DNA from: Anaerolineae bacterium | GTDB lineage: Bacteria > Chloroflexota > Anaerolineae > J102 | Direction of reading: 5' to 3' | DNA: 64,000 nucleotides | NCBI GenBank assembly: GCA_026991225.1 | Contig: JALXCB010000044.1 | Location: 6,490 to 70,489 of the forward strand | Shown here: one piece after another, positions 1,300 to 49,717 of the stretch | How positions within the stretch are numbered: the first letter of the stretch is position 1 | Layout: the number at the start of each line of letters is the position of its first letter | Made by a program: the position numbers and the translations under genes | The notes under the pieces: generated by a model | Databases searched by the model: none | What the model was told of the DNA's origin: nothing | The model's input: only the letters and a program-made list of their open reading frames with translations

Positions 1300-1504
1300 A
1301 GCCGGAGGGCCAGAGGTCAGAGCTACAGAGGTCAGAGCCGCAGAAGCCAGAAGGCCAGAGTGCCAGAAGGCCAGAAAGCCAGAGGGACAGAAGGCCAGAG
1401 GCCCGGCCCCCTGAACACTGAAAACTGAACACTGAACACTCCCCCACCTCCCCTGAAACCCCCATTGACAATTAGCCATTGACCATTCCCCAAAGGAGCT
1501 TCCC
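1300..1504. repeat. intergenic cassette: (GGCCAGARG/GTCAGAGGT)n 9-mer minisatellite + CTGAACACTGA heptamer block + (CATTGACAATTAGC)n promoter-proximal repeat
   Basis: About 11 nine-mer units at 1300-1405; heptamer block 1411-1440; about 1.5 units of the TTGACA-containing 14-mer at 1465-1490. Confidence 0.8.
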
Positions 1505-2635: not shown

Positions 2636-2804
2636 AGGCCGGGGCAGAGGTCAGAGGTCAGAGGCCAGAAGGCCAGAGGGCCAGAGGCCCGGCCCCCTGA
2701 ACACTGAAAACTGAACACTGAACACTCCCCCACCTCCCCTGAAACCCCCATTGACAATTAGCCATTGACAATTAGCCATTGACCATTCCCCAAAGGAGCC
2801 TCCC
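2636..2804. repeat. same intergenic cassette, second copy (about 6 nine-mer units, about 2.5 14-mer units)
   Basis: Read directly; same architecture with different unit counts. Confidence 0.8.
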
Positions 2805-3944
2805 ATGAACCGCACGCATCTCCGTTTCCTCCCTCCCCTGCTTTTGGCCGCACTGGTGGCCCTCCTCCTGGCCGGGCTGGCCGCGGCGGGCGGGCCGGGC
2901 GTCGGGCCCGCGGCCGCGCCCCGCCTCGATCCCCCCGCGCCCGTCAACATCACCTTCGACAGCGACGTTTGGAGCGTTGCAGTACAAGAGAACTATGCTT
3001 TCGTAGGACTGGAAAAGGGGGGCGTCATCATCCTCGATATCACCAATCCTCTCCGTCCCACCGTCGTGAGCACGTTCGATGATCCTGATTCCTATGGCTT
3101 GTATTATGTGGATGACCTCTTCCCCAACGGGGATATCCTGGTCATTCCAGTCGGTTCTGTCTTCTATATCGTCGATATCAGCGATATTACCCACCCGTCC
3201 TGGCTCAGTTATCGCCATCCCGCGGCTTACGAACTGAAGGCCATGGCTCTTTACGACCAGCGGGCTTACGGCCTGGGGCCGGATTCCTTCGAGATTTGGG
3301 ACCTCCAGGACCCCTCCTCGCCTCAGTTGTTGTACGGCATGCGGGATCAGTACCACCGCCTCTTTGCGGATATGCAACAGATCGCGGTCGCTCGCAACCC
3401 CGCAGATGGCCGCATCTACGCCTACATGACCGGCGAGCCCCTCTGTTTCCACGACTGCGTAGGCAATGGCCTGGTTTTCATGGATGTCACCGACCCCTCC
3501 CAGCCCCAAGTCGTCTACACTTCAAGGTGGAATGGAGTCACGCTGGCCGCCCAAGAGGAGTATCTCTATTGGAGCGATTCGGATGCCAGTTTGCAAATCC
3601 TTGGTCTTACCGACCCGCGACAACCAGAACTGTTAAGTCGCATCGATTTAGCCGATATTGGCTTTGCGATGGATAGGAAGGGGAATAGGCTTTTCCTTGC
3701 CCTGGCATACGGAGAAGATGGCCAGATCGATGTTATAGATGTGACTAACAAGACGAAGCCCACTTCCATGACAAGGTATGAAGACGTGAAACACGGGAAA
3801 AGTCTATCTCATTCGGATGAAACAGGCTGCCTGTTCGTGGCGGAGCTTAGCCGCGGCCTGCGCATCCTTTGCGACATCAACGCCAATCCGCACCCCCCCG
3901 CCCTGGTCTGGCTGCCTATGGTGCAGGCCCGGTTTGAGCGATGA
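2805..3944 (+). CDS. secreted LVIVD-repeat protein, tandem paralog 2
   Basis: Near-identical signal peptide and C-terminus VWLPMVQARFER to paralog 1; LVIVD repeats. Confidence 0.75.
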   Translation: MNRTHLRFLPPLLLAALVALLLAGLAAAGGPGVGPAAAPRLDPPAPVNITFDSDVWSVAVQENYAFVGLEKGGVIILDITNPLRPTVVSTFDDPDSYGLYYVDDLFPNGDILVIPVGSVFYIVDISDITHPSWLSYRHPAAYELKAMALYDQRAYGLGPDSFEIWDLQDPSSPQLLYGMRDQYHRLFADMQQIAVARNPADGRIYAYMTGEPLCFHDCVGNGLVFMDVTDPSQPQVVYTSRWNGVTLAAQEEYLYWSDSDASLQILGLTDPRQPELLSRIDLADIGFAMDRKGNRLFLALAYGEDGQIDVIDVTNKTKPTSMTRYEDVKHGKSLSHSDETGCLFVAELSRGLRILCDINANPHPPALVWLPMVQARFER

Positions 3945-4183
3945 AGGCAGGAAGGCCAGAGGTCAGAGGTCAGAACCACAGAGGTCAGAGGCCAGAAGGC
4001 CAAAAGGCCAGAAAGCCAGAGGGCCAGAAGGTCAGAGGCCCGGCCCCCTGAACACTGAAAACTGAACACTGAACACTCCCCCACCTCCCCTGAAACCCCC
4101 ATTGACAATTAGCCATTGACAATTAGCCATTGACAATTAGCCATTGACAATTAGCCATTGACCATTCCCCAAAGGAGCCTCCC
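3945..4183. repeat. same intergenic cassette, third copy (about 11 nine-mer units, about 4.5 14-mer units)
   Basis: CATTGACAATTAGC repeated 4 times plus a partial unit at 4100-4165. Confidence 0.8.
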
Positions 4184-5317
4184 ATGAACCGCTCGCATCT
4201 CCGTTTCCTCCCTCCCCTGCTGCTGGCCGCACTGGTGGCCCTCCTCCTGGCCGGGCTGGCCGCGGCGGGCGGGCCGGGCGTCGGGCCTGCGGCCGTCCCC
4301 CGCCTGGATCCCCCCGCGCCCGTCAACATCACCTTCGACAGCGACGTCCTTTCCGTGGCCGTCCAGGGCGATTACGCGTATGTGGGTTTGGAAAAAGCAG
4401 GCGTAGCCGTTCTTGACATTTCCGATCCCTTGCACCCCATTATCATAAGCACCTTCGATGATCCCGATCCTTCCGGGCTGAATTATGTGGATGAGCTCAT
4501 TCCCAATGGGGATATCCTGATCATTCCCTATGGCTCTGTCTTTTACGTCGTCGATATCAGCGACCCCGCTCATCCCGCCTGGCTCAGTTATAGTCATGAT
4601 GCGGCTTACGAACTGAAGGCCATGGCCCTTTACGACCAGCGGGCTTACGGCCTGGGACCGGACTCCTTCGAGATTTGGGACCTCCAGGACCCCTCCTCGC
4701 CCCAGTTGTTGTACAGCATGCGGGATCAGTACCACCGCCTCTTTTCGGATATGCAGCAGATCGCGGTCGCCCGCAACCCCGCAGATGGCCGCATCTACGC
4801 CTACATGACCGGCGAGCCCCTCTGTTTCCACGACTGCATAGGCAATGGCCTGGTTTTCGTGGATGTGACCGACCCCTCCCAGCCCCAAGTCGTCTACACT
4901 TCAAGGTGGAATGGAGTCACGCTGGCCGCCCAAGAGGAGTATCTCTATTGGAGCGATTCGGATGCCAGTTTGCAAATCCTTGGTCTTACCGACCCGCGAC
5001 AACCAGAACTGTTAAGTCGCATCGATTTAGCCGATATTGGCTTTGCGATGGATAGGAAGGGGAATAGGCTTTTCCTTGCCCTGGCATACGGAGAAGATGG
5101 CCAGATCGATGTTATAGATGTGACTAACAAGACGAAGCCCACTTCCATGACAAGGTATGAAGACGTGAAACACGGGAAAAGTCTATCTCATTCGGATGAA
5201 ACAGGCTGCCTGTTCGTGGCGGAGCTTAGCCGCGGCCTGCGCATCCTTTGCGACATCAACGCCAATCCCCAACCCCCCGCCCAGGTCTGGCTGCCCCTAA
5301 TTGGAATCCAGGGATAG
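4184..5317 (+). CDS. secreted LVIVD-repeat protein, tandem paralog 3
   Basis: Same signal peptide; 3' two-thirds almost identical at DNA level to paralog 2 (3296-3944 vs 4675-5270). Confidence 0.75.
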   Translation: MNRSHLRFLPPLLLAALVALLLAGLAAAGGPGVGPAAVPRLDPPAPVNITFDSDVLSVAVQGDYAYVGLEKAGVAVLDISDPLHPIIISTFDDPDPSGLNYVDELIPNGDILIIPYGSVFYVVDISDPAHPAWLSYSHDAAYELKAMALYDQRAYGLGPDSFEIWDLQDPSSPQLLYSMRDQYHRLFSDMQQIAVARNPADGRIYAYMTGEPLCFHDCIGNGLVFVDVTDPSQPQVVYTSRWNGVTLAAQEEYLYWSDSDASLQILGLTDPRQPELLSRIDLADIGFAMDRKGNRLFLALAYGEDGQIDVIDVTNKTKPTSMTRYEDVKHGKSLSHSDETGCLFVAELSRGLRILCDINANPQPPAQVWLPLIGIQG

Positions 5318-10150: not shown

Positions 10151-10390
10151 ATGACCATCGTCACATGGCATGAAATGAAACAATCTTTTAGAAAATATCT
10201 GCAACGAGTCAAACAGGGGGAAACGTTGCTGGTGGTGGAGGACGGACGCCCCGTAGCCGAAATGCGGCCCGTTGTGGAGGATGAAGCGCGCCTGAGGCCC
10301 TTCGGATTATGCGCTGGCGAATTCCATGTGCCTGACGATTTCGATAAACCACTTCCTGAAGAAGTCCTCGCATTATTTGAAGGGCGATGA
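10151..10390 (+). CDS. type II antitoxin (Phd/YefM-like, VapB partner)
   Basis: 79 aa, MTIVTWHEMKQSFRKYLQRVKQGETLLVVEDGRPVAEM; 4-bp overlap with the downstream PIN toxin. Confidence 0.6.
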   Translation: MTIVTWHEMKQSFRKYLQRVKQGETLLVVEDGRPVAEMRPVVEDEARLRPFGLCAGEFHVPDDFDKPLPEEVLALFEGR

Positions 10391-10791
10391 GGTTATTACT
10401 CGACACCCACATCTTTCTGTGGTACATCGCCGGCGAAAGGAAGATCAGCGAATCGATCCTTGCCATGATCCGTGATCCGGACAATCAGGTGTATCTGAGT
10501 GTGATTTCGGAGTGGGAAATCATCATCAAGCATCAGTTGGGACGGCTTCCTTTGCCTGCATCACCCGGCGTCTACATTCCTGCACAACGTCGCAGACACC
10601 GCATTGACGTCCTATCGCTGGATGAGGATGCAGTGAGTGCATTGGGGGAATTACCCGCAATTCATCGCGATCCATTTGATCGCATGTTAATCAGTCAGGC
10701 AATGTATCATGGATTGATTCTGGTCACTGTTGATAGAGTCGTCATGAAATATGGGGACGTGATGAACGTGCGGATGCTGTTGGCGAATTGA
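10387..10791 (+). CDS. vapC: PIN-domain toxin VapC
   Basis: MRLLLDTHIFLWY... PIN acidic residues; followed by hairpin plus T-tract terminator. Confidence 0.8.
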   Translation: MRLLLDTHIFLWYIAGERKISESILAMIRDPDNQVYLSVISEWEIIIKHQLGRLPLPASPGVYIPAQRRRHRIDVLSLDEDAVSALGELPAIHRDPFDRMLISQAMYHGLILVTVDRVVMKYGDVMNVRMLLAN

Positions 10792-11849: not shown

Positions 11850-12119
11850 AAGTGGATTTTTCCTCCGAATTTTTTATTTAATAGGAATAGCATCTGGGTT
11901 TTGAAGCTGTCCCGCCCACAGGACGAGACCAAAAGCGCTTCTCAACTGACCACTGATTACTGATCACTGGTCACTCCAATTGTACCCCTTTTCCCCGCGT
12001 TTCGTCCAGACGCCAGCAGGAAAAAACGCTCTCATGGATTGTTTTCTTCGGAAATTTCGGGCCTTCCTGTGCTCATGATACAATAATAGGTCTGGAAATC
12101 GGTCGATGCAAGGATTTGC

Positions 12120-15100: not shown

Positions 15101-15458
15101 GCCCATCACCGCCCGCGTGCCCATCACGCAACCCGACGGCACGGTCACGTACGAACAACGTCCCATCAGCACGGTCGAGGCCGATCCCGACGATCCCAAT
15201 CGCATCATTCTTACTGCCACCAACGGTTTCGGCATCATCCACGACACCAAAGGTTACACCGAAACGCACGTCATCAAGGCCGTGGCCTACGACGTGGCCG
15301 GAAACAAGGCCGAAAGCCAGCCCGTGCGCATCTTCGTCATCCACAAGGAAGGCAAAGGTCCCAAGCCGCGCGGGCAGGAAGGCCGCCTCCCCGATCTGGA
15401 TGACCCCACCCGTTACGCTCTCCGCCCCATTGTATCATGGAACGAACGGCATCTTTGA
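12120..15458 (+). CDS. bifunctional class A penicillin-binding protein (PBP1A: GT51 transglycosylase + transpeptidase) with long C-terminal Ig-like extension
   Basis: GT51 motifs ALEDRSFWENPGIN, SSITQQLVKN; transpeptidase SSFKP (SxxK) and KTGTT; ~400-aa C-terminal extension. Confidence 0.9.
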   Translation: MKRLTDQATSRLTDHPMNLPSKIYLHRRRQERLHRAQMPAWQKLLGVAAIALFVFITLTVTATASVAAVAGGVYYYFTRNLPDPSAIVTKQENFETVKIYDRTGKVLLYESIDPRPFRGDRTYVTLDQISPYLINATVALEDRSFWENPGINLRGIGRAFVQNLQGGAIQGASSITQQLVKNVIIPPEERYQRSYTRKIKEMLMALKITQKYDKTQILEWYLNNNFYGNFSYGIESAAQTYFGKPAKDLNLAEAAMLAALPQFPGLNPIQAPEDAKRRQRKVLQAMVEAGYITQEQADEAYAQELDVRESALERFDNDIAPHFALYVLDQLKKEFNTPEDPYFIWRNGLTVRTTLDVDIQHYVTCVARQRVAHLAHEDPTIPGCPDLDPEPFLQSGKHSKIDHNVSNAAVVVLAPKTGEILSMLGSLDYNNREIDGEVNIALADRQPGSSFKPITYLTGFSQGLTAATVAWDVRQVFPDAVEPYTPENYDRKYHGPVPLRVALQRSYNIPAVWVMSQVGVKNVVNMAHRLGVTSLNKDYYGLSLTLGGGEVKLLDMAYVFATFANMGVMKGEPVLPQDLRPGYRTLDPVAILEVKDREGNIVKEYEGPQEQRVISEQLGYLLDNVLSDPRPRPPAFGTFAQYLELPDRPIIAKTGTTNDFRDGWTLGASPQYAVGVWVGNADNTPMESTSGSVGASPIFHDIMAYLHKDKPVEKWEEPDGFVRRTVCYESGLLATDICPRRYTEIFIDGTEPKEYDNFWQVFEVNKLNGKLATPYTPPDLIERRVYPVFPPVAKDWAQEQAELGKIQLPPTEYDDTFGPVFTDEEVAIAKPAPFSYIKGQVEIWGNARSGDFRLYQLHFGQGLQPQTWTQIGPDHYNQVDKGVLEYWDVSGLSGPYTLRLSVVENSGNVRQVAIPITVDNTPPTVVLSTPENGKVYVKEDDEWVNINALATDDWAMDRVVFYLDDTPLITTTVSPYSAKWTITMSDTVPTLDMEPITARVPITQPDGTVTYEQRPISTVEADPDDPNRIILTATNGFGIIHDTKGYTETHVIKAVAYDVAGNKAESQPVRIFVIHKEGKGPKPRGQEGRLPDLDDPTRYALRPIVSWNERHL

Positions 15459-15808
15459 TGCATACGCCATCGGCGATACCCTTTCTGGATGAAATCGTCG
15501 CCCGATTAGAAAGCATCGATCCAGAGAAAATCATCCTTTTCGGCAGCCAGGCGGAAGGTCGCGCCGACCCATGGAGCGATTTGGACCTGATTGTTGTGAC
15601 AAGCGACGACCGAATGCCTGCTACGTATCGGGAGAAAGAAGAAATTTACCTGCAAGTCTCGCGCCTGATTCGAGACATCCGACAGAAAATCCCCATCGAT
15701 CTCATCGTGCACACCCGGCCCATGCATGAGCGCTTTCTCACCATGAACAGTCTCTTCGCACAAGAAGTCCGGGAAAGAGGCCTGGTGCTCTATGAAAAAG
15801 ACCACTGA
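15458..15808 (+). CDS. minimal nucleotidyltransferase (MNT) antitoxin-type protein
   Basis: LFGSQAEGRADPWSDLDLIVV nucleotidyltransferase motif; ATG overlaps PBP stop (TGATG). ORF-track alternative start 15437. Confidence 0.75.
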   Translation: MHTPSAIPFLDEIVARLESIDPEKIILFGSQAEGRADPWSDLDLIVVTSDDRMPATYREKEEIYLQVSRLIRDIRQKIPIDLIVHTRPMHERFLTMNSLFAQEVRERGLVLYEKDH

Positions 15809-16187
15809 AGAATGGCTGGCCAAGGCCGCGGAAGACCTTTTGGCTGCGGAACTCCTGCTATCGCAATGGGAACTGACCAATATCGTGGCTTTTCATGCGC
15901 AGCAAACGGTTGAAAAGGCGTTCAAAGCCGCGATTGAAGAACTGGAACTTGGTCTAATTCGCACCCACAGTCTGACGCGACTCTACCAGCTCATCGAATC
16001 AGAATTTCCCGTAGTTGATGACCCTGACATGTTAGACCGTCTTGATGCGGTTTACATTGAGGCGCGCTATCCCAGCGAGCTTGGCCTGATCCCATCGGGC
16101 AAACCAACCAGTGAGGAAGCGGCTGCTTTTCATGCGTTTGCCACCCGTGTTTTGAAGCAGATTCAAACAGCCCTGACCCAACGCTAA
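15792..16187 (+). CDS. HEPN-domain protein (partner of MNT)
   Basis: 131 aa helical protein with GLIRTHSL HEPN-like motif; overlaps MNT gene end. Confidence 0.75.
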   Translation: MKKTTEEWLAKAAEDLLAAELLLSQWELTNIVAFHAQQTVEKAFKAAIEELELGLIRTHSLTRLYQLIESEFPVVDDPDMLDRLDAVYIEARYPSELGLIPSGKPTSEEAAAFHAFATRVLKQIQTALTQR

Positions 16188-17408: not shown

Positions 17409-17496
17409 TCACCTCCACTTCAATTATGCCCGAACCAGGCGGTTGATGCAATCCCCACACTGAACACTCCCTCACTGATCACTGATTACTGAATCC

Positions 17497-18384
17497 ATGT
17501 CCTTCCGCCCCCTCTTCTCCCGCGACCGTCTCTGGGCCAGTTTGCTCACACTGGCCCTCATCGCGTTGGCCCTCATCGCGCTGCGCGCGATGGCTGCGCG
17601 GCCTGTTGGTCCGGGCACAGTCCTCCTGGGCGGGTTTGCGCTGATCCTGGGCGGACTTAGTCTGCTGTTGATCTACCGCCTGTGGGCGCTGCATACGCTG
17701 GATTATTGGGTGCAGCGAGACGCCATCCATATCCTCTGGAATGGCGAGGAAGCCATCGTGCCTTTGGATCATGTCCAACGCGTGGAGCGAGGCGACGGCC
17801 TGGACCTGAAACCGAACTGGTTGCACTGGCCCGAACCGTGGATCGGCTACGATGCCGACGCCCGCATTCTCGCCTACGCTTCCCAACCGCCTGAACGCAG
17901 CCTCATCATCGTCACTGACGAGGAGAACTACCTGATCTCGCCCGACGATCCCGACGCGTTCATTGCCGCTTTCGAGGAGCGCCGCGACTTCGGCCCGGCC
18001 CGCAAGCTGAAACCCGTCATCTATCTCGCCCCCTGGCGACAGCATTGGCTGCTACGCGACCGTGTGGCGCAACTGCTGCTCTTTGGCGGGCTCGCCCTGG
18101 GCCTTGTTCTGCTGGCCTACGTCACCTGGCGCTATCCTCAACTGCCCGAGACCATCGCCCTCCACTTCGATCTGGACGGCAACCCCGACCTCCTTAGCCC
18201 CCGACGTTCCATCTTTCTCATTCCGGGCGTCGCTCTGCTGATTGGCTTTCTCAACGCGGCCATCGGTTACGCATTCTACGCGTATCGACGATTCATCGCC
18301 TATCTTCTCTGGAGCGCGTCGGTGATCTTGCAACTGATGGGCCTCTATATCGCCATGCGCCTCATCAATCTTGCTGTGGGATAG
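17497..18384 (+). CDS. membrane protein with bacterial PH-like N-domain and DUF1648-like C-domain
   Basis: Multiple TM helices; C-terminal RYPQLPETIALHFDLDGNPD resembles DUF1648/SdpI-like proteins. Confidence 0.5.
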   Translation: MSFRPLFSRDRLWASLLTLALIALALIALRAMAARPVGPGTVLLGGFALILGGLSLLLIYRLWALHTLDYWVQRDAIHILWNGEEAIVPLDHVQRVERGDGLDLKPNWLHWPEPWIGYDADARILAYASQPPERSLIIVTDEENYLISPDDPDAFIAAFEERRDFGPARKLKPVIYLAPWRQHWLLRDRVAQLLLFGGLALGLVLLAYVTWRYPQLPETIALHFDLDGNPDLLSPRRSIFLIPGVALLIGFLNAAIGYAFYAYRRFIAYLLWSASVILQLMGLYIAMRLINLAVG

Positions 18385-19249: not shown

Positions 19250-20046
19250 CCGAAAACGCTTCCTCTTCTTCCTCTGCATCCCCAAAGCCTTTGCTCAGCA
19301 TCATCATTCCGGCCTATAACGAGGAGCAGCGCCTGCCCGACTCCCTCGATCAGATTGTCGCCTGGTGCGAGACCACGCCTTATGAGGTCGAGGTCATCAT
19401 CGTCGAGAACGGCAGCAGCGACCGCACTACGGAGATCGCGGAAGCGTACGCCCGGAAACACCCCAACATTCGCGTCTTTCATAGCGAAAAGGGCAAGGGT
19501 GCAGCCGTGCGCAAGGGCATCTACGAAGGTCGGGGCGAGTATCTTTTCATGTGCGATTCCGACCTTTCCATGCCCATCTCCGAGGTGGAGAAGTTCCTCC
19601 CGCCTCAGCTCAACGGCTACGATGTCGCCATCGGCAGTCGCGAAGCGCCGGGCGCACAGCGGTTCAATGAGCCCGCTTATCGCCATTTTATGGGCCGCAT
19701 TTTCAATATCATTGTGCGGGTGTTGGCCGTGCCTGGTTTCAGCGATACGCAGGCCGGGTTCAAGATGTTCAAACGGGATGCGGCCATGGATATCTTTCCC
19801 TACCAGACCATCATGGGCTGGACGTTCGACGTGGAGGCCCTTTATATCGCCCTGAAGCAGGGCAAGAAGGTGGTGGAAGTGCCCATCAACTGGTACTTCG
19901 ATGAAGACAGCCGCGTGGATCCCTTGAAAGACACCTGGCGCATGTTCTGGGATGTCATCACCATCCGTCTTAACGACCGGCGCGGCCTATATGACGCCGC
20001 GACTCGCGCCAGGGATGAAGACCGAAGCCCATCTTCTCAGCCATAA
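19246..20046 (+). CDS. family 2 glycosyltransferase (dolichyl/polyprenyl-phosphate glucosyltransferase-like)
   Basis: LSIIIPAYNEE...VEVIIVENGSSD...CDSDLS (DxD). Confidence 0.8.
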   Translation: MTENASSSSSASPKPLLSIIIPAYNEEQRLPDSLDQIVAWCETTPYEVEVIIVENGSSDRTTEIAEAYARKHPNIRVFHSEKGKGAAVRKGIYEGRGEYLFMCDSDLSMPISEVEKFLPPQLNGYDVAIGSREAPGAQRFNEPAYRHFMGRIFNIIVRVLAVPGFSDTQAGFKMFKRDAAMDIFPYQTIMGWTFDVEALYIALKQGKKVVEVPINWYFDEDSRVDPLKDTWRMFWDVITIRLNDRRGLYDAATRARDEDRSPSSQP

Positions 20047-20057
20047 GGTGAACCGAT

Positions 20058-20903
20058 ATGACCAACGATCTCATCAATCAACTGCAAGCCATCGCCCAAC
20101 AGGCCGAGGATGATCCTCGCGCCGCGCGCAAGGCCCTGCGCCGCCTGGCGCCCGCGCTGCCCGAAACCGCAGAAGTGCAGACCGGGCTGGGGTTGACCTA
20201 TCTCGAACTGGGCCAACCTCGCGACGCCATGCGCGCGTTCAAGCGAACGATCCAGCTGGACCCGGACAACGCCACGGCCCGCTACCAACTGGGCCTGTTG
20301 CAATCGGACCAGGGATTGCTGCCTCAGGCCGAGGCCAATTTGCGCGTTGCTGTGGAGGCGGAGCCCGAGAATCCCGACTATCTGTCGGCGCTGGGGTTCA
20401 CCTACTACCGCGCGGGCAAAAATGATCGGGCCATCGAGACCCTGGAGAAGGCGTTGGCTGCGGGCGCGGAGAATGAGAACGCGTTTACTGCCTTGGGCTA
20501 TCTCTATTACGAGGCGGGCGATTTCGCCAAATCTCGGGACGCGTTCTCCCGTCTTCTGGATTTGGATCCCGAGCGGGCGGACGTTTACAACAACCTGGGC
20601 TACCTCGATATCCTCACCGGCGATCTGGATCGAGCGACCGAGGAGCTGACCGCGTGTCTGGAGAAGGACGACAGCTATCTCCGGGCCCGCTACAACCTCG
20701 CTCTGGTCGCGTGGCTGCAAGGCGACCAGGAGAAAGCCATCGATCTCTACAAAGACGCCCGCCGTCAGGACCGCGGAGACGCCGAGCTCCAGCAGCACAT
20801 GGCCGATCTGGACGAGGTGGCGGAACACTACGACGAGGAGAAGGGCCTGGCCGCGCTGAAGAACAAGCTGGCCGTGGCGCTGAAGACTGGACGATTGAAG
20901 TAA
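20058..20903 (+). CDS. TPR-repeat protein
   Basis: Repeated 34-aa TPR units (YQLGLLQ..., LGFTYYRAGKNDRAIE..., LGYLYYEAGDFAKS...). Confidence 0.75.
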   Translation: MTNDLINQLQAIAQQAEDDPRAARKALRRLAPALPETAEVQTGLGLTYLELGQPRDAMRAFKRTIQLDPDNATARYQLGLLQSDQGLLPQAEANLRVAVEAEPENPDYLSALGFTYYRAGKNDRAIETLEKALAAGAENENAFTALGYLYYEAGDFAKSRDAFSRLLDLDPERADVYNNLGYLDILTGDLDRATEELTACLEKDDSYLRARYNLALVAWLQGDQEKAIDLYKDARRQDRGDAELQQHMADLDEVAEHYDEEKGLAALKNKLAVALKTGRLK

Positions 20904-20909
20904 GGCGCA

Positions 20910-21409
20910 TGGAGAAAGAATTCCTGACCTGGCAGGACGTGGACAGGCTGGTGGATGAGCTGTTGCCCCAGATCGCGGGGAAATTCGACGCCATCCTCAT
21001 AGTCACGCGTGGGGGCATCATCCTGGGCGGCATTCTGGCCGAAGCTTTGGACATACGCGATGTGCTCACCGCGGCCGTGGAATTCCCTCGCGACCCGGAA
21101 CTCGAAAAGCTCGCCTGGCCCACCTTCCTCCAATTCCCCAGCGACGCCATCCTGCGCGGCCGCCGCATCCTCATCGTGGATGATGTGTGGGACAGCGGGC
21201 GCACCATCAACACGGTGCGCGGCCGGGTGGAGGCCGCGGGCGGCATGCCCGCCACTTGCGTGCTCCACTATAAGCCGGGCCGCTCCCTCTTCCCCGACCG
21301 CCAGCCCGACTATTACGGCGCGGTCACCAATCGTTGGATCGTCTATCCCTGGGAAATCGACCGCGGCGGGGACTTTGCGGAGTTGATCCCCGATCTCTTT
21401 CTGACGTGA
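20910..21409 (+). CDS. phosphoribosyltransferase-domain protein (purine PRTase-like)
   Basis: ILIVDDVWDSGRTI PRPP-binding motif; start MEKEFLTW at 20910 just after the TPR stop. Confidence 0.7.
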
Positions 21410-21414
21410 GATGA

Positions 21415-21485
21415 CCTTCGGGAGGTGGGCGAGCAGTTTTGGGCTTGACCTGACGGTTTTCGCCCACCTCCCGGAGGTCTGGAGG
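21415..21485. repeat. family-I palindrome (GACCTCCGGGAGGTGG ... CCACCTCCCGGAGGTC)
   Basis: 14-bp perfect arms; related copies at 58752-58830 and partial at 33985-34035. Confidence 0.7.
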
Positions 21486-21500
21486 CAACCGCCGAGCACG

Positions 21501-22325
21501 CTACTCTTCGAGCAGCCTCCTCGTCCCCCGCGCCATGATCCAGTCCACCAGCCAGGGGAAGAGGCGGTCGAGCCGCCAGATCAGCCTGCCCGCCCAACTG
21601 AGGACGACAATGCGGGGGCGTCGCCGCGTCGCCCGCAGGATGGCCTGCGCTGCCTCCTCTGCGGTCTGCGTGCCTGGCGCCCGCCGCTCCTTACCCGGCC
21701 GATTGTGCAGACTGCCCTCTCGAATGACGCCCTTCTGGGCCAACTGCACCCCGCTGGTGAAGTAGGGACACACGGTGACAACGTCGACGCCAGCGGGCTT
21801 GAGCTCCACCCACAGCGCCCGGGCCCACGCGTTCATGGCCGCCTTGGACGCACTGTACACCGAGGCGGTGGGCGTGCCGATGAGTCCGGCCACCGAGGAG
21901 ACGTTGACGATGACCCCGCGGCCGGCTTTGAGATGGGGTAGCGCCGCCCGGGCGCAGTACAACGCTCCGAAGAAGTTGACCTGGAACTGACGCTCCGCGT
22001 CGCCCGGCTGCAAGTGCTCGAACAGGCCGGAGACGACCATGCCCGCGTTGTTCACCAGCGCATCCACGCGGCCGAAATGCGCGGCCGCCTCGGCCACGAA
22101 TCGCTCACACTGGACGGGATCGCTCACGTCGGAGGGGATGGCGATGGCCCACTCGGGCCCGCCAAGCTCCTCGGCCAGGCGGGCAAGGACGTCTGCGGAG
22201 CGGGCGGCCAATGCCACCCGCGCGCCCGCCTCCCGAAAGGCGATGGCCGCGGCCCGGCCGATGCCCGTGGACGCGCCGGTGATGAGAATGACCTGGCCGT
22301 CGAAATCCGTCATGGTTTGCGTCAA
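21501..22325 (-). CDS. SDR-family oxidoreductase
   Basis: ILITGASTGIG Rossmann motif; NNAG; YSASK catalytic motif. Confidence 0.85.
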   Translation of the reverse strand: MTQTMTDFDGQVILITGASTGIGRAAAIAFREAGARVALAARSADVLARLAEELGGPEWAIAIPSDVSDPVQCERFVAEAAAHFGRVDALVNNAGMVVSGLFEHLQPGDAERQFQVNFFGALYCARAALPHLKAGRGVIVNVSSVAGLIGTPTASVYSASKAAMNAWARALWVELKPAGVDVVTVCPYFTSGVQLAQKGVIREGSLHNRPGKERRAPGTQTAEEAAQAILRATRRRPRIVVLSWAGRLIWRLDRLFPWLVDWIMARGTRRLLEE

Positions 22326-22636
22326 TGCACCTGGTGGGGATCGAAGCCCATGGGCGGGCGTTTGGGCAGGCCCGACCCCTGCATCTTGATCTCCCCGAAC
22401 CGCTTCTCGTAATTCTGGAGGTTGTGCGTCAGCGCTTGCAGCAGCAGCTTGGCGTGGTAGGGCGTGAGCACGATGCGGGTTTGCACTTGCGCGTGGGGCA
22501 TGTTGGGCATCACATGGGCGAAATCGATGACGATCTCATTGTAATTGTGATGGATGATGGCGAAGTTGCTGTAAATGGGCTTGAGGTCCTTGGGCGCTTC
22601 GATTTTGAGCTGTTTGGGTTGCTCTTGATTCGACAT
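22322..22636 (-). CDS. DUF3467-family small protein
   Basis: MSNQEQPKQLKIEAPKDLKPIYSNFAIIHHNYNEIVIDFAH pattern; the upstream part of the track ORF (22637-22759) lies in a repeat element and is not coding. Confidence 0.6.
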   Translation of the reverse strand: MSNQEQPKQLKIEAPKDLKPIYSNFAIIHHNYNEIVIDFAHVMPNMPHAQVQTRIVLTPYHAKLLLQALTHNLQNYEKRFGEIKMQGSGLPKRPPMGFDPHQVH

Positions 22637-22659
22637 GGTGGCTCCTGTTCCGAAGATAG

Positions 22660-22835
22660 CGTTGCGTTGGTTTGCAAAAGCAACTCGAAGCCCGCGTTGG
22701 GCGAGTCTGCAACGGGCGTGATGCGTGAAAACGTGGAACGTGAGAGCGTTACGCATCACGCATTACGCATCACGTGCTTGGCTTCCCGCGCGGCCCTGGC
22801 CGCGGGGCGTTTTCGTTCGTCTCGGCGAACCGCCG
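22660..22835. repeat. family-B REP-like element (CGTGATGCGTGAAAACGTG...TTACGCATCACG hairpin core with GGCCGCGrGGCGTTTTCGTTCG tail)
   Basis: Homologous copies at about 24525-24665 (inverted), 42083-42240, 42425-42525 (inverted), 43720-43830, 45035-45180, 57060-57215; degenerate variants at 10860-10930, 38870-38990, 63120-63195. Confidence 0.75.
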
Positions 22836-22984
22836 CTGTGAATTGCGTCATTCCGCCTCTGATTGTCCATCCCTTGCCTTGAAATGTCAAGGCGGGATGA
22901 TCCGAGTTTCCAGTGAATGGAGACTGGCTTACCGAACGTTGTCAGATCATGCTTTCTGTGCTATGATCCATCTGTATTCATTGT

Positions 22985-23012
22985 TTCATTCATTCATTCA
23001 TTCATCCCATTT
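22985..23012. repeat. (CATT)n tetranucleotide microsatellite in an AT-rich promoter region
   Basis: TTCATTCATTCATTCATTCATCC, about 45 bp upstream of a TTGACA and about 80 bp upstream of the PIN/TRAM gene. Confidence 0.6.
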
Positions 23013-23080
23013 ATTCTTCATCATTCCGAGCTGCCGTTTGGCAACAGCTCATTGACAACGCCATAGGAGGTCTTATCCTC

Positions 23081-24181
23081 GTGTTCGATCGGATTTTTCG
23101 CATCCTTGGACTTATCGTTTTCGCCATCATCGGATGGGAGATCGGCGTCATCATGACGGGCGTCTCGAATCCCCTGCAGGACCTGGAATCGCTGAAGTAT
23201 GTGGCGCCTTTGACGTTGGTTGGGGCCGTGGTGGGGTGGATCATCGCTCCCTGGATTACAACCCGCCCCGCGCGTTACGCCATTCGGGTGGTGCGGCAGA
23301 TACCCATCGAGGAAGTCATCGCCGGCAGCATCGGCCTGATCCTGGGCCTGATCGTCTCCGCGCTGGTGGCCATCCCCCTGGCCAAACTGCCCCCGCCCTT
23401 CGGGCCGATTCTGCCCTTCATCGCCAGCATTGTCTTCGGCTACCTGGGCGCGCTCATCCTGGTGTTGCGCCGGGATGATCTGGTGAAGCTGTTCCGTTCC
23501 TTCCAGAAAGAGCGCGGCGATCAGGCCGTGACGACGGAGGATGCGGTCGCACCCGCTCCCTCCCCTCTGCCCCCCGGCCCGACGCCCTTGCTCCTCGACA
23601 CCAGCGTCATCATCGACGGCCGCATCCTGGACGTGGCCAAAACCGGATTCCTTCCCGGCCCCTTGCTGGTCCCCCGCTTCGTCCTCTCCGAACTCCAATA
23701 TATCGCAGATTCCTCCGACGCCCTGCGGCGGGCCCGCGGGCGCCGGGGACTTCAGGTGCTGGATGATCTCCAGAAGCTGGACAGTCCCAGGCTGGAGATT
23801 GTGGACCTGGACGCGCCCGACGTGAAGGAGGTGGATGAGAAGCTCATGGCCCTGGCCCGTCAATATGGCATCGGCATCGTCACCAACGACTACAACCTCA
23901 ACCGGGTGGCTGCTCTCCAGGGCGTGAAGGTGCTCAACCTGAACGATCTCGCCAACGCGGTGAAAGCCATCTACCTGCCGGGCGAGCATCTGCGCCTGCG
24001 CATCATCCAGGAGGGCAAGGAGCCCGACCAGGGGGTGGGCTATCTGGAAGATGGCACCATGGTGGTCGTCGAGCGCGGCCGCGACCTCATCGGCCAGGAG
24101 GTGGAGCTGGAGGTGACCAAAGCCTTGCAGACCAGCGCCGGGCGCATGATCTTCGCCGCGCCCGTGCGAGATTCCGAGTAA
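23081..24181 (+). CDS. PIN/TRAM-domain protein (YacL-like)
   Basis: N-terminal TM helices, central PIN domain, C-terminal TRAM-like domain; stop codon lies inside the inserted MITE. Confidence 0.75.
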
Positions 24182-24471
24182 CCGCTAACGTAGCCCTGTT
24201 CACTCGACACGGATACGAGGAAACACGGATAAAATCTTTTTTTGTAACTGCTAACGTACCCCGGTTAACAAACCACAAAGGGCACAAAGGCGCCAAGAAC
24301 ACGAAGAAAAAAATGTATAAATTCCCCTTTGTGCCTTTGTGTCTTCGTGTTCTTAGTGGTTTTCGGGTGATGACCTTAGTAGTTACCTTTTTAAATGACT
24401 TCGCGCCTTCGTTTCCTTCGTGCCTTCGTGGCAAAAGAGGGGCTACTGGGGCCAACTACCTTAGCAGTTAC
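24178..24471. mobile_element. composite MITE-A: outer variant copy (TSD GATTCCGA) carrying a nested MITE-A (24244-24386)
   Basis: Outer TIRs GTAACCGCTAACGT / ACCTTAGCAGTTAC with TSD 24170-24177 = 24472-24479; inner element has its own TIRs and a degenerate CTTTTT flanking repeat; the outer body matches the copy at 8806-8949. Confidence 0.75.
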
Positions 24472-24714
24472 GATTCCGAATCCAATTTCCACGGCCGGTA
24501 GCGCGCAAAGCCGGCGATACGAGCAACGGCTCGCCGATGCGAACGAAAACGCCTCGCGGCCAAGTCGGCGCGGGAAGCCAAGCACGTAATGCGTGATGCG
24601 TAACGATCTCACGTTTCACGTTTTCACGCATCACGTCCGTAGCAGACTCGCCCAACCTCGTCCTGGCGTTCCTCAATCCTAATCCTGATCCTACTCCTAT
24701 TTATCAAAGCAGCC

Positions 24715-26115
24715 ATGACCCTCAAAGTCTACAACACCCTCACTCGCCAAAAAGAAATCTTCGAGCCCCTGGAACCGGGCGTCGTGCGCATGTATGTGTG
24801 CGGCCCGACGGTCTACTCGGACGCGCACATCGGCCACGCCATGTCGGCCATCGTGTTCGATGTCATCCGCCGCTATCTGGAATACAAAGGCTACAAAGTC
24901 ATCCACGTCATGAACTTCACCGACGTGGACGACAAGATCATCAACAAGGCCCGAGAGCTGGGCGTGGACCCCTTCGAGCTGGCCAACGGCTACATCGAGA
25001 AATTCCTGGAGCAGATGGACGCGCTCCATGTGGAGCGGCCTACGGTCATGCCGCGGGTGTCAGGCACGATTGACGAGATCATCGCCATGGTGCAGGACCT
25101 CATCGACAAAGGCTATGCCTACGAGGTGGATGGCAACGTCTTCTTCCGGGTGCGCAAGGATGAGGATTACGGCAAGCTCAGCCGCCGCAAGCTGGATGAG
25201 ACCATGCGCGGGGATCGGGAGAAGTACGCCGAGGAGTTGAAGGAAGACCCCCTGGACTTCGCCCTGTGGAAGGCGCAGAAATCGCCCGACGAGCCCGCCT
25301 GGGACAGCCCCTGGGGCAAAGGCCGCCCCGGCTGGCATATCGAATGCTCGGCCATGGTGCGCAAACACCTGGGCCCGACCATCGACATTCACGGCGGCGG
25401 CAACGACCTCATCTTCCCCCATCACGAAAACGAGATCGCGCAAAGCGAAAGCTGCAACGACGCGCCCCTGGCCAAATACTGGCTGCACAACGGCATGGTC
25501 GTCCTCAGCGGCGAGAAAATGTCCAAATCCCTGGGCAACCTCATCACCATCGACGAATTTCTGGCCGAACATGACGCGGACGTCTTCCGGCTGCTGGTGC
25601 TGGGCTCCCACTATCGCAAGCCCCTGGTCTATGACGATCACGTGGTGGCGCAGGCCGAAAAGGCTTATCAGCGCCTGCTGGGCGCCCTGCGCCCGCCCAC
25701 GGGCGACAAAACCGAAGGCCCGGACGCGGAGGCGCTGTTGGAGGCCGCGCGCGTCGCCAGGGAGCGCTTCGAGGCGGCCATGGACGACGATTTCAACACC
25801 GCGGCCGCGCTGGGCCACATCTTCGATCTGGTGAAGGCCATCAATACGGCTCGGGATGCGGGCGTGGGCGGCGAGCCCTTCGCCCAGGCCCAGGCCGTGC
25901 TGAAAGAACTGGCGGGCGTGCTGGGGTTGCGTTTGCAGCCCAGGGAAAGCGCGCGGTCGGACGCGGCGCCTTTCATCGATCTGCTGGTGGAGGTGCGGAG
26001 CGAGTTGCGCAAGGCCCGGCAATGGGCTTTGGCCGACATGATCCGCGACCGCCTGGCCGAGTTGGGCGTGGTATTGGAAGACACCCGCGAAGGCACGACA
26101 TGGTCGTGGAAGTAG
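24715..26115 (+). CDS. cysS: cysteine--tRNA ligase
   Basis: [14 protein letters not shown] (HIGH) and KMSKSLGN motifs. Confidence 0.95.
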
Positions 26116-26243
26116 TCTTTATCCAATTGGGGGAACGCTGATGCCGCAGATGGAATGGATGAACTCAGATAAGCATTGAGGGAGTCATCTGCGAAAATCT
26201 GCGTCGCATCAGCGTTCATCAGCGTTCTCATTTCAAACATTTC

Positions 26244-27062: not shown

Positions 27063-27268
27063 TTTGGAGCTTCGCAGAGCTTACAGAGATTCATGGATCT
27101 TCGGCCCGGCCATCGACTCAGGCCGGGAGCCTCGCTGGTGGCATTTCCGCTATCGCCAGGGCGTCATCGAAAACTGGGAGGATCGCCCCCTGCCCGCATG
27201 GGTGCGGTTGGGCGGTCGGCTGGCCTGTTGCCGAAATCGGGCGTGAGGCCGCCAAGGCTTCAGGGCGA

Positions 27269-27297
27269 TTTGACAGGGGCGATGAAACCTGTTACAG
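27269..27297 (+). promoter_or_regulatory. sigma70-like promoter of csp
   Basis: TTGACA-17 nt-TACAGT about 145 nt upstream of the csp ATG. Confidence 0.5.
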
Positions 27298-27335
27298 TGT
27301 GTCTCGTAGGCCAACAAGCGCATCTGTCTCAAGTA

Positions 27336-27372
27336 GCAGTCGCCGCAGTTTGGGCGACTGTTTTTTGTTTCA
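27336..27372 (+). promoter_or_regulatory. terminator-like hairpin plus U-tract inside the csp 5' UTR
   Basis: CAGTCGCCGCAGTTTGGGCGACTG followed by TTTTTTGTTT. Confidence 0.45.
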
Positions 27373-27439
27373 GGAGTCATCGGGCCTACGGCAACAATTC
27401 TTTTCCCCAGTTTCACCTTATAGGAGTTAATGTAACACC

Positions 27440-27649
27440 ATGTCTGCACGAGAACAAGGCACCGTCAAATGGTTCAACGCCAGCAAAGGCTACGGCTTCA
27501 TCGCTCGCGATGATGGCGAAGACGTCTTCGTCCACTTCTCCGCTATCCAGATGGATGGCTTCCGCACCCTGGAAGAGGGACAGCGCGTCGAGTTTTCCGT
27601 CGAGAGCGGCCCCAAAGGGCTCCAGGCCCGCGACGTCACCGCCATCTAA
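27440..27649 (+). CDS. csp: cold-shock protein (CspA family)
   Basis: [36 protein letters not shown]; SD TAGGAG; long structured 5' UTR. Confidence 0.95.
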
Positions 27650-27681
27650 ACTAAACGCATTTTGAAATCAGGTGTTTTCGG

Positions 27682-27836
27682 GTAACTGCTAACGTACTTG
27701 ACTTTAGACCGCCAAAAGCCACGAAGGCTCGAAGTTTTTCGAAGCCACGAAGGAAAAAATAAAGAAAAATACGTCGTGCCTTCGCTTTTCTTCGTGTCTT
27801 CGTGGCAAAAAGTGGTCGCGATACCTTAGTAGTTAC
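27682..27836. mobile_element. MITE-A copy (155 bp) with 8-bp TSD GTTTTCGG, inserted in a family-E repeat
   Basis: TIRs GTAACTGCTAACGT / ACCTTAGTAGTTAC; direct repeat 27674-27681 = 27837-27844; the uninterrupted family-E copy at 60293-60475 (reverse complement) has a single GTTTTCGG at this point. Confidence 0.85.
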
Positions 27837-28117
27837 GTTTTCGGCCTTGGCCACCCGGAGCTGAAACTCCGGGCTACGAAACGACGCCGGGTGAACCCGG
27901 CTTTCCGCGGCGCGCGACATGCGCCGTAGCCCCATTGATGGGGCGTCGTTATTAGCCCGCAGGTGAACCTCGGGCGGCGGTGCGGCCAGAGAATCGCCTT
28001 TCATGGATGATCCAATGCAAATCAAAAGCCTTGGTTTCAATTTGCTTTCAGTTTAATGCGTTGAATGCAGACGGATGCCTCACTCGATAGCATCCATTTA
28101 TCTGCTATCATCACGCG

Positions 28118-30013: not shown

Positions 30014-30313
30014 ATGACCGAGTTCATCACGACAAATATCCGTCTTCCAGTACAATTGCATCGCGAGCTAAAACGTCGCGCGGCGGAGGAGAACAAAAGC
30101 ATGGCGCAAGTGTTGCGCGAGGCTGCGGTGCAATACATCGCGTCAGCCAAAACTTCCAATCACGAGGAGATGGAAGCAAGAGATGATGATCCTTTGTGGC
30201 TGATCGGGACTGATCCTGTGGATCTGGGGGTGACGGATGCTTCCGTGAACCACGATGTCTATCTTTATGGTCCGCTTTCGGATTCGGCCAAAGCTGAGAT
30301 CACAGAAAAATGA
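30014..30313 (+). CDS. ribbon-helix-helix-type antitoxin (VapB-like)
   Basis: NIRLPVQLHRELKRRAAEENKSMAQVLREAAVQY RHH pattern; 4-bp overlap with PIN gene. Confidence 0.55.
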   Translation: MTEFITTNIRLPVQLHRELKRRAAEENKSMAQVLREAAVQYIASAKTSNHEEMEARDDDPLWLIGTDPVDLGVTDASVNHDVYLYGPLSDSAKAEITEK

Positions 30314-30729
30314 GACCCCTTTTCGTTGATACCGCAGCCTGGTTGGCATTGGAATCTCGAAGGGATCAATACCATGATGTCGCCTTTGCGTTTGCACAAA
30401 ATCAGGCACGAGCATTTCAATGGGTCACGACGAATTGGATATTATCCGAAACCGTGACGATGCTACGCAGACGCGCCAACCATGCCATTGCCGTCCGTTT
30501 TATGGAGCGAGTGCGCGCAAGTAAACGATTGCAGATTGTACGTATTGAGCCTCCCCACGAGGAAAGAGCCTGGGTAATTTTCAAGCGTTATGCCGACAAA
30601 GACTTTGGATTTGTGGATTGCACCAGCTTTGCCGTTATGGAGACCTTTGGCATTGCCGAGGCCTTTTCGTTTGACCATCATTTCCGGCAATTTGGATTTC
30701 AAACGCTTCCCCTTCATGCGTTGAGGTAA
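30310..30729 (+). CDS. vapC: PIN-domain toxin VapC
   Basis: [23 protein letters not shown]...; stop 2 nt before the start of the MCM B12 subunit. Confidence 0.75.
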
Positions 30730-31152: not shown

Positions 31153-31190
31153 TCACCACTGATTACTGAACACTGAACACTGATTACTTT
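31153..31190 (+). promoter_or_regulatory. CACTGA(W)TA heptamer array immediately 5' of the meaB start codon
   Basis: CACCACTGATTACTGAACACTGAACACTGATTACTTTCA-ATG; similar arrays at 1411-1440, 2695-2726, 4048-4077, 11942-11977, 17455-17493, 48757-48800. Confidence 0.5.
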
Positions 31191-36210: not shown

Positions 36211-36505
36211 GGTAGTATTCGGGGAGAAGGATGGGAATGGTTGCCCGCTTCGCTGGTGCGAGAAGCCGAGGACGTGACGAGTTATGCGTGATGCGGAAGT
36301 GCCTCACGGATTACGGGTGGCGGCAGTCGGTAACCCAGTAGACCAGGAAACCAGAAAACCGGGAAACCGGGCCACCTTCCTGGGCTACTGGGCTACTGGT
36401 TTCCTGGTTTACTACCTTTATTTTCAAATCAGAAAATTGCGCTCAGGCTTTGAAATCATTATACTGCTACCCGATAGAAATCTTCCAATCCCCCTCGGAG
36501 CGACC

Positions 36506-38846: not shown

Positions 38847-39231
38847 CGGTTTTGAAAAATAACTTCGCGTTCGTTTACACAAGCAACTCAAAGCCAACGT
38901 TGGGCGAGTCTGCTACGGGCGTCAAACGTCATACGTAAAACGTCAGGACATGACGCATGACGTTTGACGCTGACCGACTGACAAAACGTTGCCTATGCGT
39001 TTGCCGTGTCCCTTTGCCCCCTCCCCGGCCCTTATATGATAAAGCGGGGTGAGGATATATGATAACCGTGTCATATAACTCATCTCCCCCGATACTCGCT
39101 CCGTTCGTGTTCGAGAGAAGGGGACGCCCGAAGCCAGTCAGTTTTCACGAAATAAGCGCTTCTTACCGGGCGAAAACATGTCCCCTGCCCTTCGCTCCTT
39201 TTGACCTCGCTACGTTGGTAGCTACGCCTGC

Positions 39232-42059: not shown

Positions 42060-42316
42060 AGCGTCCTCCTGTTTCGGAAGTGGCGTTGCGTTGGTTTACA
42101 AAAGCAACTCGAAGCCCGCGTTGCGCGAGTCTGCAGCGGACGTGATGCGTGAAAACGTGAAACGTGAGAGCATTACGCATCACGCATTACGTGATTGACT
42201 TCCCGCGCCAACCTGGCCGCGAGGCGTTTTCTGCATCCCAGGATACCCCCCAACCATTCACAAAATGTGATGCGAATGTAAAAAATGTGTCATCCCCCGC
42301 CGCCCAACGGACAAAG

Positions 42317-42390: not shown

Positions 42391-42576
42391 CTATGTGGTT
42401 GCACGCCCCATCGAAAAAACGCTTTGTTGGCGCGGGAAGCCGCGTCGTGAAACGTGATGCGTGATGCGTAACGTTATCACGTTTCACGCATTACGTTTCA
42501 CGTGAGTTGCCGCCTCGGCCAACTTTGGCTTGACGAACCTTTCGCCATCTGCGCCAACGCGCTATCTTCAAAGAAG

Positions 42577-43656: not shown

Positions 43657-43855
43657 TCTCTGGAAGTTGTCATTTGGAATGAAAAGCGCGCGCCAGCAAG
43701 ATGGGCGCGGGCAGCCAAAGCCGTGAAACGTCATGCGTGATGCGTGACCATCTCACGCGTCACGATTTCACGCATCACGCCCGTTGCCGCCTCGCCCAAC
43801 GTCAGCCTGGCGGGCCTTTCGCAGACGGCGCCAACGCTCTGGACGAAACAGCACC

Positions 43856-49575: not shown

Positions 49576-49577
49576 AT

Positions 49578-49680: not shown

Positions 49681-49717
49681 GCCGCGAGGCGTTTTCGTTC
49701 TCGCGTCGCCCGCTTTA

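Follow-up and report, generated by a model that had tools for sequence, protein, structure and literature searches.

A dispersed mosaic of hairpin cassettes gained, lost and replaced in the intergenic DNA of an Anaerolineae bacterium

Introduction

A 64,000-nt stretch of DNA from an Anaerolineae bacterium (hereafter the window) contains at 22660-22835 a hairpin-forming element that the original prediction had placed among several small families of modular, REP-like repeats. This locus raises the question of what kind of element the unit is, how far its relatives extend, and by which process such units come and go. The window has a G+C content of about 61% and encodes CysS, Fe/Mn SOD, iPGM, a MalK-type ABC ATPase and three tRNAs, together with further housekeeping genes such as methylmalonyl-CoA mutase with MeaB and PRPP synthetase. 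Closely related DNA is available from several assemblies: in the ENA assembly ERZ23491050, one contig is 100% identical to positions 19322-25636 and a second scaffold is essentially identical over 27782-60356, and three MAG assemblies at NCBI share 99-99.8% identity with the window. One gene of the window shows 84% DNA identity to a contig of 'Anaerolineae bacterium T2_metabat1_scaf2bin.155'. At least one other assembly with the same genes is labelled as a hydrothermal-vent metagenome, and the host is an uncultured Anaerolineae bacterium (Chloroflexota), probably of hydrothermal settings.

Dispersed repeats in the intergenic DNA

The element at 22660-22835 does exist, and its motifs recur far above chance. 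The motif GGCCGCGRGGCGTTTTCGTTCG gave four matches in the window at three or fewer mismatches against 0.01 expected, and the tail TTTTCRTYCGTATCGGCGAGCT gave seven against none expected. An all-vs-all comparison of the intergenic DNA bore out the presence of several small dispersed families, and the claim that they occupy most of this DNA was found to be roughly right: dispersed repeats made up 53% of the 10.3 kb of intergenic DNA, which itself amounts to 16% of the window once gene starts were refined from gene calls on identical contigs. This coverage counts sequence matched either elsewhere in the window or in some 230 kb of non-orthologous DNA of related MAGs, and is a lower bound because the comparison library was small.

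The repeats were recognized neither as local duplications nor as annotated structured RNAs. In a species-representative genome collection, the exact junction motif (defined below), to which the tail belongs, was located at 44 loci, 41 of them in seven Anaerolineae/Caldilineales MAGs; the other three were single matches in coding-dense DNA of unrelated Proteobacteria, at about chance level. An nhmmer profile of the junction detected seven copies in the window and 100 in the window and related loci together. Copies from different genomes were 80-94% identical to those of the window, as similar as one shared conserved gene, and the units are shared across species and dispersed within genomes. With the covariance models of Rfam 15, only three tRNAs of the window passed the gathering score, and nothing relevant appeared up to an E value of 1 in 22600-23100. 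Carriage of the junction by phages was rejected, as the motif had no match in viral contigs.

Anatomy of the units

The element is one of about nine copies of a family that carries the label B from the original prediction (Table 1). Seven copies align across 120-190 nt, and the family also includes those at 42410-42575 (minus strand) and 63115-63199. The boundaries determined here, 22645-22859, are slightly wider than those first proposed. On the strand of the finding, a family-B unit consists, in order, of a left end (LE), a left module with a CGTTG...CAACG stem, a heptamer hairpin, a GC hairpin followed by TTTTC, and a right end (RE). LE is 15 nt long (CTGyTyyGwAAATAG), and RE, of about 35 nt (TTTTCrTyCGTATCGGCGAGC-nnnn-GCTCGTGGCGmCTG), contains a small stem with compensatory changes. 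The stem of the long hairpin is built from tandem heptamers (CGTGATG/ACGTGAA), with CGTGATG CGTGAAA ACGTGAA on one arm and TTACGCA TCACGCA on the other.

Table 1. Hairpin units and MITE-A copies located in the window
Feature	Position	Strand	Remarks
Family-B unit at the finding	22645-22859	+	Based on sequence, alignment and fold; absent in spacers L045-L048, identical in strains of 99% identity
LE of this unit, CTGTTCCGAAGATAG	22645-22660	+
Left module of this unit	22661-22712	+	CGTTG..CAACG stem
Heptamer hairpin of this unit	22716-22775	+
GC hairpin of this unit	22784-22807	+
TTTTC of this unit	22809-22813	+
RE of this unit	to about 22859	+
Family-B unit	24506-24714	-	LE abuts CysS start codon
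Family-B unit	42064-42245	+	LE adjoins RBS of DUF1800 gene; RE cut off after TTTTC
Family-B unit between tRNA-Gly and tRNA-Met	42410-42575	-	LE CTTTGAAGATAG directly after tRNA-Gly 3' end
Family-B unit with junction	44993-45196	+	Downstream of GT4 glycosyltransferase gene
Family-B unit	57023-57229	+	Between iPGM start and MalK terminator
Partial family-B unit (heptamer hairpin and degenerate GC hairpin)	43700-43783	-
Family-B variant with CGTCAAA heptamers	38850-38990	+
CGTCAAA-type heptamer hairpin	63115-63199	+
GGAAACC/GGTAGACC octamer-hairpin unit	49562-49701	+	TAG of its LE is the SDR gene stop codon
GGAAACC-type hairpin unit with full junction	52148-52322	+	Part of 486-nt block absent in L081
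ATCTGCG/ATCAGCG hairpin unit with full junction	52310-52649	+	Split by MITE-A (52383-52535); uninterrupted homolog in L009
ATCTGCG hairpin right arm with RE	55020-55121	+	Three different units in the same slot of L081
ATCTGCG/ATCAGCG-type hairpin	26134-26233	+
GGAAACC-type octamer hairpin in divergent spacer	36318-36413	+	Gene start refined
GGAAACC-type hairpin	58921-59045	+	CGTCAAA-type B unit in the same place of L081
GACCTCCGGGAGGTGG hairpin cassette between LE and shortened RE	21413-21509	-	Strains of 99.8% identity carry two other units here (296 nt)
MITE-A copy in loop of ATCTGCG hairpin	52383-52535	+	Target duplication AAAAAATC
MITE-A copy inside another repeat	62797-62950	+	Target duplication AAACTCGG; uninterrupted host-repeat copy at 45225-45345
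MITE-A copy	59545-59697	+	Site empty in L081; target duplication GAACTnAT
MITE-A copy	27682-27836	+	Target duplication GTTTTCGG
MITE-A-like copy	24180-24471	+	Contains a second MITE-A (24244-24386)

The same LE and RE also bracket other hairpin types, such as those of the GGAAACC/GGTAGACC octamers and of ATCTGCG/ATCAGCG, and units of relatives add CTTTGCG, ACTTGCC, CACGGAT, CGTATTG and more. At the variable core of a unit, then, tandem 7- or 8-mers make up both arms of a long hairpin, and some units add a GC hairpin and TTTTC after it; the GACCTCCGGGAGGTGG hairpin has a second copy at 58760-58825. In head-to-tail arrays, RE overlaps the LE of the next unit in CTG, which yields a conserved 50-nt junction. 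Different families had been predicted to end in one common tail module, and this sharing is real: the tail follows hairpins of the CGTGATG type (22810, 24528 on the minus strand, 45149 and 57179), the GGAAACC type (52271) and the ATCTGCG type (52597 and 55093), and in related MAGs at least eight hairpin types. Its status as a free module did not hold up, the tail being better read as an RE that abuts the LE of the next unit.

Folding and periodicity were then summarized over the 125 nt upstream of 96 junctions. The median minimum free energy was -51.7 kcal/mol with a median z-score of -3.1, and the best autocorrelation lag was 7 nt in 62 and 8 nt in 13 of these sequences. In the 6-bp junction stem, 92% of the cells across 52 distinct junctions were paired and 13 cells carried compensatory double changes, a level of covariation that was reached by none of 500 shuffles. 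The heptamer tracts vary in length, copies differing by whole heptamers (as in a 7-nt gap of the family-B alignment), and small indels between strains fall inside the repeat tracts. These observations indicated that the arms slip. A stem made of one repeated word could pair in several registers, and the hairpin would be expected to survive such slippage.

Turnover of units at orthologous sites

The syntenic DUF3467/PIN-TRAM/CysS loci of relatives were retrieved with the PIN-TRAM protein. The unit at the finding (22649-22859) was missing in four relatives (L045-L048); at the same site, L065 had a decayed copy and L049 a B-like unit, and the surrounding DUF3467 RBS and the PIN-TRAM promoter and leader stayed conserved. 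The PIN-TRAM/CysS spacer measured 548 nt in the window, 82 nt in L045 and 65 nt in L046. Throughout the orthologous spacers compared, from relatives of 75-99.8% identity, units were absent, added or replaced by others, with breakpoints at LE or RE in most cases. This gain, loss and replacement of units at orthologous sites, even between near-identical strains, is what is new here and constitutes our main result; for any single event, the direction (gain or loss) is unpolarised without a phylogeny.

Even strains of 99.8% identity differed, in that 296 nt of two other units took the place of the one cassette at 21415-21509; one breakpoint fell at an LE in which the SDR gene has its stop codon, the other at a degenerate RE. 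The sister strain L081 (about 96% identity) lacked a 486-nt block of two units and a MITE-A, flanked in the window by TGCGTTGAA[A/G]ATAG, and carried one extra unit between window positions 49577 and 49578, flanked by two LE copies. Its slot corresponding to 55033-55091 held three units against half a hairpin in the window, and in two more spacers the cassettes differed between the strains. L089 (97% identity) lacked the B unit at 57025-57213; the flanks of this deletion had diverged and its right edge was not sharp. In the MAG ortholog L022, three B units in inverted orientation were found where the window has one. The modular, combinatorial build that had been proposed for these repeats was thereby seen directly, as strain-level swaps of hairpin cassettes between constant ends. 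Contigs from other assemblies terminate at positions 21510 and 22659-22680, the latter being the edge of the unit at the finding, which indicated that assemblers break at the units and that the MAGs of this lineage are fragmented on assembly by these repeats.

MITE-A insertions

MITE-A is an element of about 155 nt with 14-nt terminal inverted repeats (GTAACTRCTAAsGT), 8-bp target duplications and a core formed by an ACGAAG octamer hairpin. Its predicted nesting within older units was confirmed for the copies at 52383-52535 and 62797-62950, both with 8-bp target duplications, and the suggested chronology of REP-like elements first and MITE-A later holds for those nested copies. MITE-A itself has the terminal inverted repeats and the fixed-length target duplication of classical MITEs. 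The hairpin units differ in this respect, for they are without target duplication, and the 14-17-nt direct repeats that flank them are their own LE copies.

Two further observations concern individual MITE-A copies. The PIN-TRAM stop codon (..GAG TAA, 24176-24186) falls within the opening bases of a terminal repeat of MITE-A (GTAACCGCTAACG), and the C-terminal coding sequence of PIN-TRAM differs from that of relatives without this MITE. At another site, the identity of L085 (GCA_054007015.1) to the window begins exactly at the left end of a MITE-A, 52383; upstream of this position, L085 carries unrelated genes (RtcB with an intein, DUF3179 and PIN); either the DNA was rearranged at the MITE or the assembly is chimeric.

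Units, gene ends and leaders

Among 75 LE motifs, 30 were part of full junctions, eight lay 10-25 nt from an opposite-strand start codon, and ten were situated at same-strand gene ends, where the TAG of LE served as the stop codon in seven. The window contains 11 units in which a hairpin is followed by TTTTC; a comparison of their strands with the refined gene list placed four of them downstream of a gene in the sense direction, four in spacers between divergent genes, and three antisense in spacers between tandem genes. At the loci of related MAGs, orientation was unbiased (15 same/same versus 25 opposite/opposite, from crude gene calls). MalK, the one gene checked, has its own canonical terminator beside a unit, at 57228-57262. 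A scan of the B units flagged one weak terminator-like site at 22793-22808 and predicted no sigma-70-like promoter inside them. Taken together, these tallies, the terminator of MalK and the scan implied that the units are not placed like terminators or promoters.

A reading of the units as intrinsic terminators was accordingly rejected on position and orientation. A promoter reading was also considered, given that 'CTATTTTC' beside RBSs resembled a -10 box, and was discarded when no consistent -35 element was seen by eye at a distance of 16-18 nt. The real PIN-TRAM promoter is located downstream of the unit, at 22939-22967, and is conserved in relatives.

Between this promoter and the start codon lies an (ATTC)n simple repeat (22976-23026), the length of which differs by 4 to 12 nt among strains otherwise 99% identical; it could form a phase-variable PIN-TRAM leader. 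The motif CATTGACAA recurs at 23040-23080, 2748-2787 and 4099-4166, as three to five tandem copies of CCATTGACAATTAG upstream of two LVIVD-repeat paralogs and, with conservation across species, in the form GCTCATTGACAAnnnnATAGGAGG immediately ahead of the PIN-TRAM start. The LVIVD paralogs number four, in tandem (28-1299, 1505-2635, 2805-3944 and 4184-5317; region 28-5317), and their upstream regions are near-identical, with tracts of CAGAGGC/CAGAAGGC 7-8-mers.

Tandem heptamers of the pattern xACTGAx (CACTGAT TACTGAA CACTGAA), arranged as direct and not as inverted repeats, occupy spacers upstream of genes at 31157-31188, 48757-48797, 17454-17504, 11944-11975, 1409-1440, 2695-2726 and 4046-4077. 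Those at 31193, 17497 and 48805 end within a few bases of a start codon, and in related MAGs such tracts follow junctions. They resemble the TAACTGA repeats described upstream of start codons (PMC4679880).

Two additional repeat families of about 120-145 nt comprise several short GC-rich stem-loops, e.g., CCGGGTGAACCCGG and GGTCGCCCTTCGGCGACC. Their copies, at 27837-27980 and 60303-60447 (minus strand), at 45225-45345 and 62780-63060, and at 13480-13700 of L081, are 94% identical and have no Rfam match; they look like a class apart from the periodic hairpins.

In the region 27063-27649, a long ORF (27093-27665) without Pfam match is probably spurious, since gene calls on identical contigs place there a 69-aa cold-shock protein gene (27440-27649), which is preceded by a 377-nt repeat-free spacer. 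The window also harbors toxin-antitoxin-like genes at 10387-10791, 15437-16187 and 30014-30729, namely two PIN genes, of which one has a small partner gene upstream, and a pair of nucleotidyltransferase and HEPN genes, and L081 has an extra HicB-like gene (2793-3029) in its OCD/SDR spacer.

Origin and turnover of the units

The units are dispersed, share one LE/RE frame, are gained, lost and swapped as wholes, and slip in their arms. On this basis, we consider it probable that the unit at 22645-22859 is a member of a lineage-wide superfamily of small, non-coding, non-autonomous cassettes in hydrothermal Anaerolineae, the turnover of which is mostly due to recombination. Short-term changes would arise chiefly when dispersed copies recombine or convert one another, LE and RE acting as homology arms, and deletion between LE direct repeats would provide another route. 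Where LE repeats flank a loss or gain, the event is compatible with recombination or slippage between these repeats, and replacements between constant ends seem best explained by gene conversion from other copies. The first arrival at a naive site with no prior LE, as at 22649 and 57025, would need some insertion activity. Effects on the host would be secondary, and may include RNA or DNA hairpins, occasional weak termination, gene-terminal stop codons derived from LE and, immediately before RBSs, an AU-rich stretch. Against this recombination account, the 15-nt LE is short for RecA-dependent exchange, and primary insertion is without a matching enzyme in the DNA searched.

The search for such an enzyme bears on an alternative that we regard as possible but unlikely, namely that the units are true REP/REPIN-type or IS200/IS605-derived elements whose single-stranded hairpins are moved by a Y1 HUH transposase (RAYT or TnpA) encoded elsewhere; this enzyme would recognize the junction hairpin or the large hairpin and insert without target duplication. 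The hairpin-based, non-coding nature of the units and borders that lack a classical target duplication agree with it, as do the small conserved stem of RE beside a conserved CGTATC, the GTAG within GGTAGACC octamers and within the palindrome GGGCTACGTAGCCC (52255-52268), the CGTC of the CGTCAAA variant, and the report of GTAG-tagged REPs in Chloroflexi (PMC3733652). However, a transposase of any kind was absent from the window, no Y1/RAYT domain being present among its approximately 50 proteins, and a search with Y1 transposase motif patterns found none in 511 kb of related DNA. Likewise, tblastn with approximate queries for IS608 TnpA and E. coli RAYT revealed none in 712 kb of related DNA (best E value 0.21), a weak negative given these queries. 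Moreover, the units lack a tetranucleotide tag at a fixed end, their main hairpins are far longer than REPs, and swaps between constant ends are explained more simply by recombination. A bolder idea, to which we give rather little credence, is that the junction, which combines a covarying 6-bp stem beside CGTATC with the RE/LE overlap in CTG, is the recognition and crossover site of an undescribed dedicated recombination system of Anaerolineae that excises and integrates gene-less hairpin cassettes, probably via circles. If this were true, cassette exchange would be chromosome-wide, following an integron- or RAYT-like logic with a different enzyme, and the periodicity of the stems would be adaptive, allowing hairpins to fold whatever the register.

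Selection at each site could be invoked instead of spread, and the conservation of the junction across species together with its covarying stem could indeed reflect a selected host function rather than selfish spread. That the units are primarily functional RNA or transcription elements (weak terminators or insulators against read-through and antisense transcription, RNase III or mRNA-stabilizing hairpins, or small-RNA genes) nevertheless appears doubtful to us. A strong hairpin followed by TTTTC, the terminator-like site in the unit at the finding, the covarying junction stem and the sense units downstream of some genes (GT4, SDR, APH, CysS and tRNA-Gly) speak for such a role, but just four of the 11 units in the window are of this sense-downstream kind, orientation is unbiased at the MAG loci, and MalK has a terminator of its own. 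The units also have no Rfam match and, for family B, no promoter-like site; they are dispensable in close strains and interchangeable with unrelated hairpin types. A further, very improbable reading is that the units serve as arrays to which a DNA- or RNA-binding protein (a nucleoid protein, or one of the S1/Csp type) binds by reading 7-8-nt repeats, the hairpin being incidental. Such a reader would account for the strict 7/8-nt periodicity of the stems and for the separate, direct xACTGAx tracts right upstream of start codons, whose TAACTGA counterparts have been proposed to bind S1, Csp or CsrA (PMC4679880). The occurrence of many unrelated heptamers in the same slot argues against one sequence-specific reader, though, and since inverted arms are the rule, it is pairing and not sequence that is conserved.

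Several polymorphic sites are already present in public metagenomes, and the units could therefore serve for studying the spread and turnover of hairpin repeats that have no visible transposase. As strain-level markers the units are fast, and they alter gene ends, where LE supplies the stop codon and the last four codons, as well as 5' leaders.

Comparison with known repeat systems

A full-text literature search retrieved no account of the LE/hairpin/RE architecture or of these repeats in Anaerolineae. REP sequences proper are imperfect palindromes of 20-40 nt with GTAG (or CGTC) at one end, and the REPs of a BIME alternate in orientation. The main hairpins described here, with their periodic stems, measure 45-90 nt, and the 16-nt stem of the junction alone falls within the REP range; family B has no fixed tag, GTAG and CGTC being found solely inside the octamers or heptamers of some types; and, although a defined linker is present, the one array examined (L022) consists of three units in the same orientation, head to tail. 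Extragenic location, high copy number and strain-variable clusters are as in REPs. Enterobacterial REPs/BIMEs and Pseudomonas REPINs are likewise extragenic, high-copy, hairpin-forming and non-coding, and form mosaics with conserved linkers that vary between strains and are targets of other mobile elements (PMC3733652, PMC3116915). The likeness to BIMEs drawn in the original prediction therefore stands as a description (mosaic, extragenic, hairpin-forming, with conserved linkers), but membership in REP proper is not supported by hairpin size, tag or orientation. What sets the present units apart is that one 50-nt junction is common to all hairpin types and several species, and that the stems of 45-90 nt are made from tandem 7-8-mers of many sequence types.

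Compared with MITEs, the hairpin units fall outside the class, their 14-17-nt LE direct repeats belonging to the unit itself, and MITE-A falls inside it. As for palindrome-associated elements of the IS200/IS605 kind, hairpins are present and target duplication is absent here, no fixed outside target could be defined, and TnpA was missing from the 712 kb of related DNA searched by tblastn with an approximate query.

Heptamer periodicity has parallels as well. Cyanobacterial STRR heptamer repeats and small dispersed repeats (SDR) were reportedly described by Mazel in 1990 and Elhai in 2008. With these and the TAACTGA repeats, the units share heptamer periodicity, intergenic location, tracts by start codons and nested small elements; those repeats, in contrast, are mainly direct tandem tracts or elements of 21-27 nt, whereas the heptamers described here form both arms of long hairpins between a defined LE and RE. 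The TAACTGA repeats are known upstream of start codons in Beggiatoaceae, Cyanobacteria and Bacteroidetes, Chloroflexota not being among the reported hosts (PMC4679880), and Chloroflexus has heptamer satellites of the form (GATAGRA)n (PMC6749651).

Finally, as an analogy only, integron attC cassettes likewise keep their structure while the hairpin sequence varies, form head-to-tail arrays and are exchanged at conserved junctions. Unlike integrons, the cassettes described here carry no genes, have no integrase or attI nearby and no R'/R'' core consensus, and their sites are scattered over the chromosome instead of being gathered in one array. The units are thus a BIME-like mosaic of non-autonomous hairpin cassettes, a variant of the REP/BIME kind and not a new kind of system.
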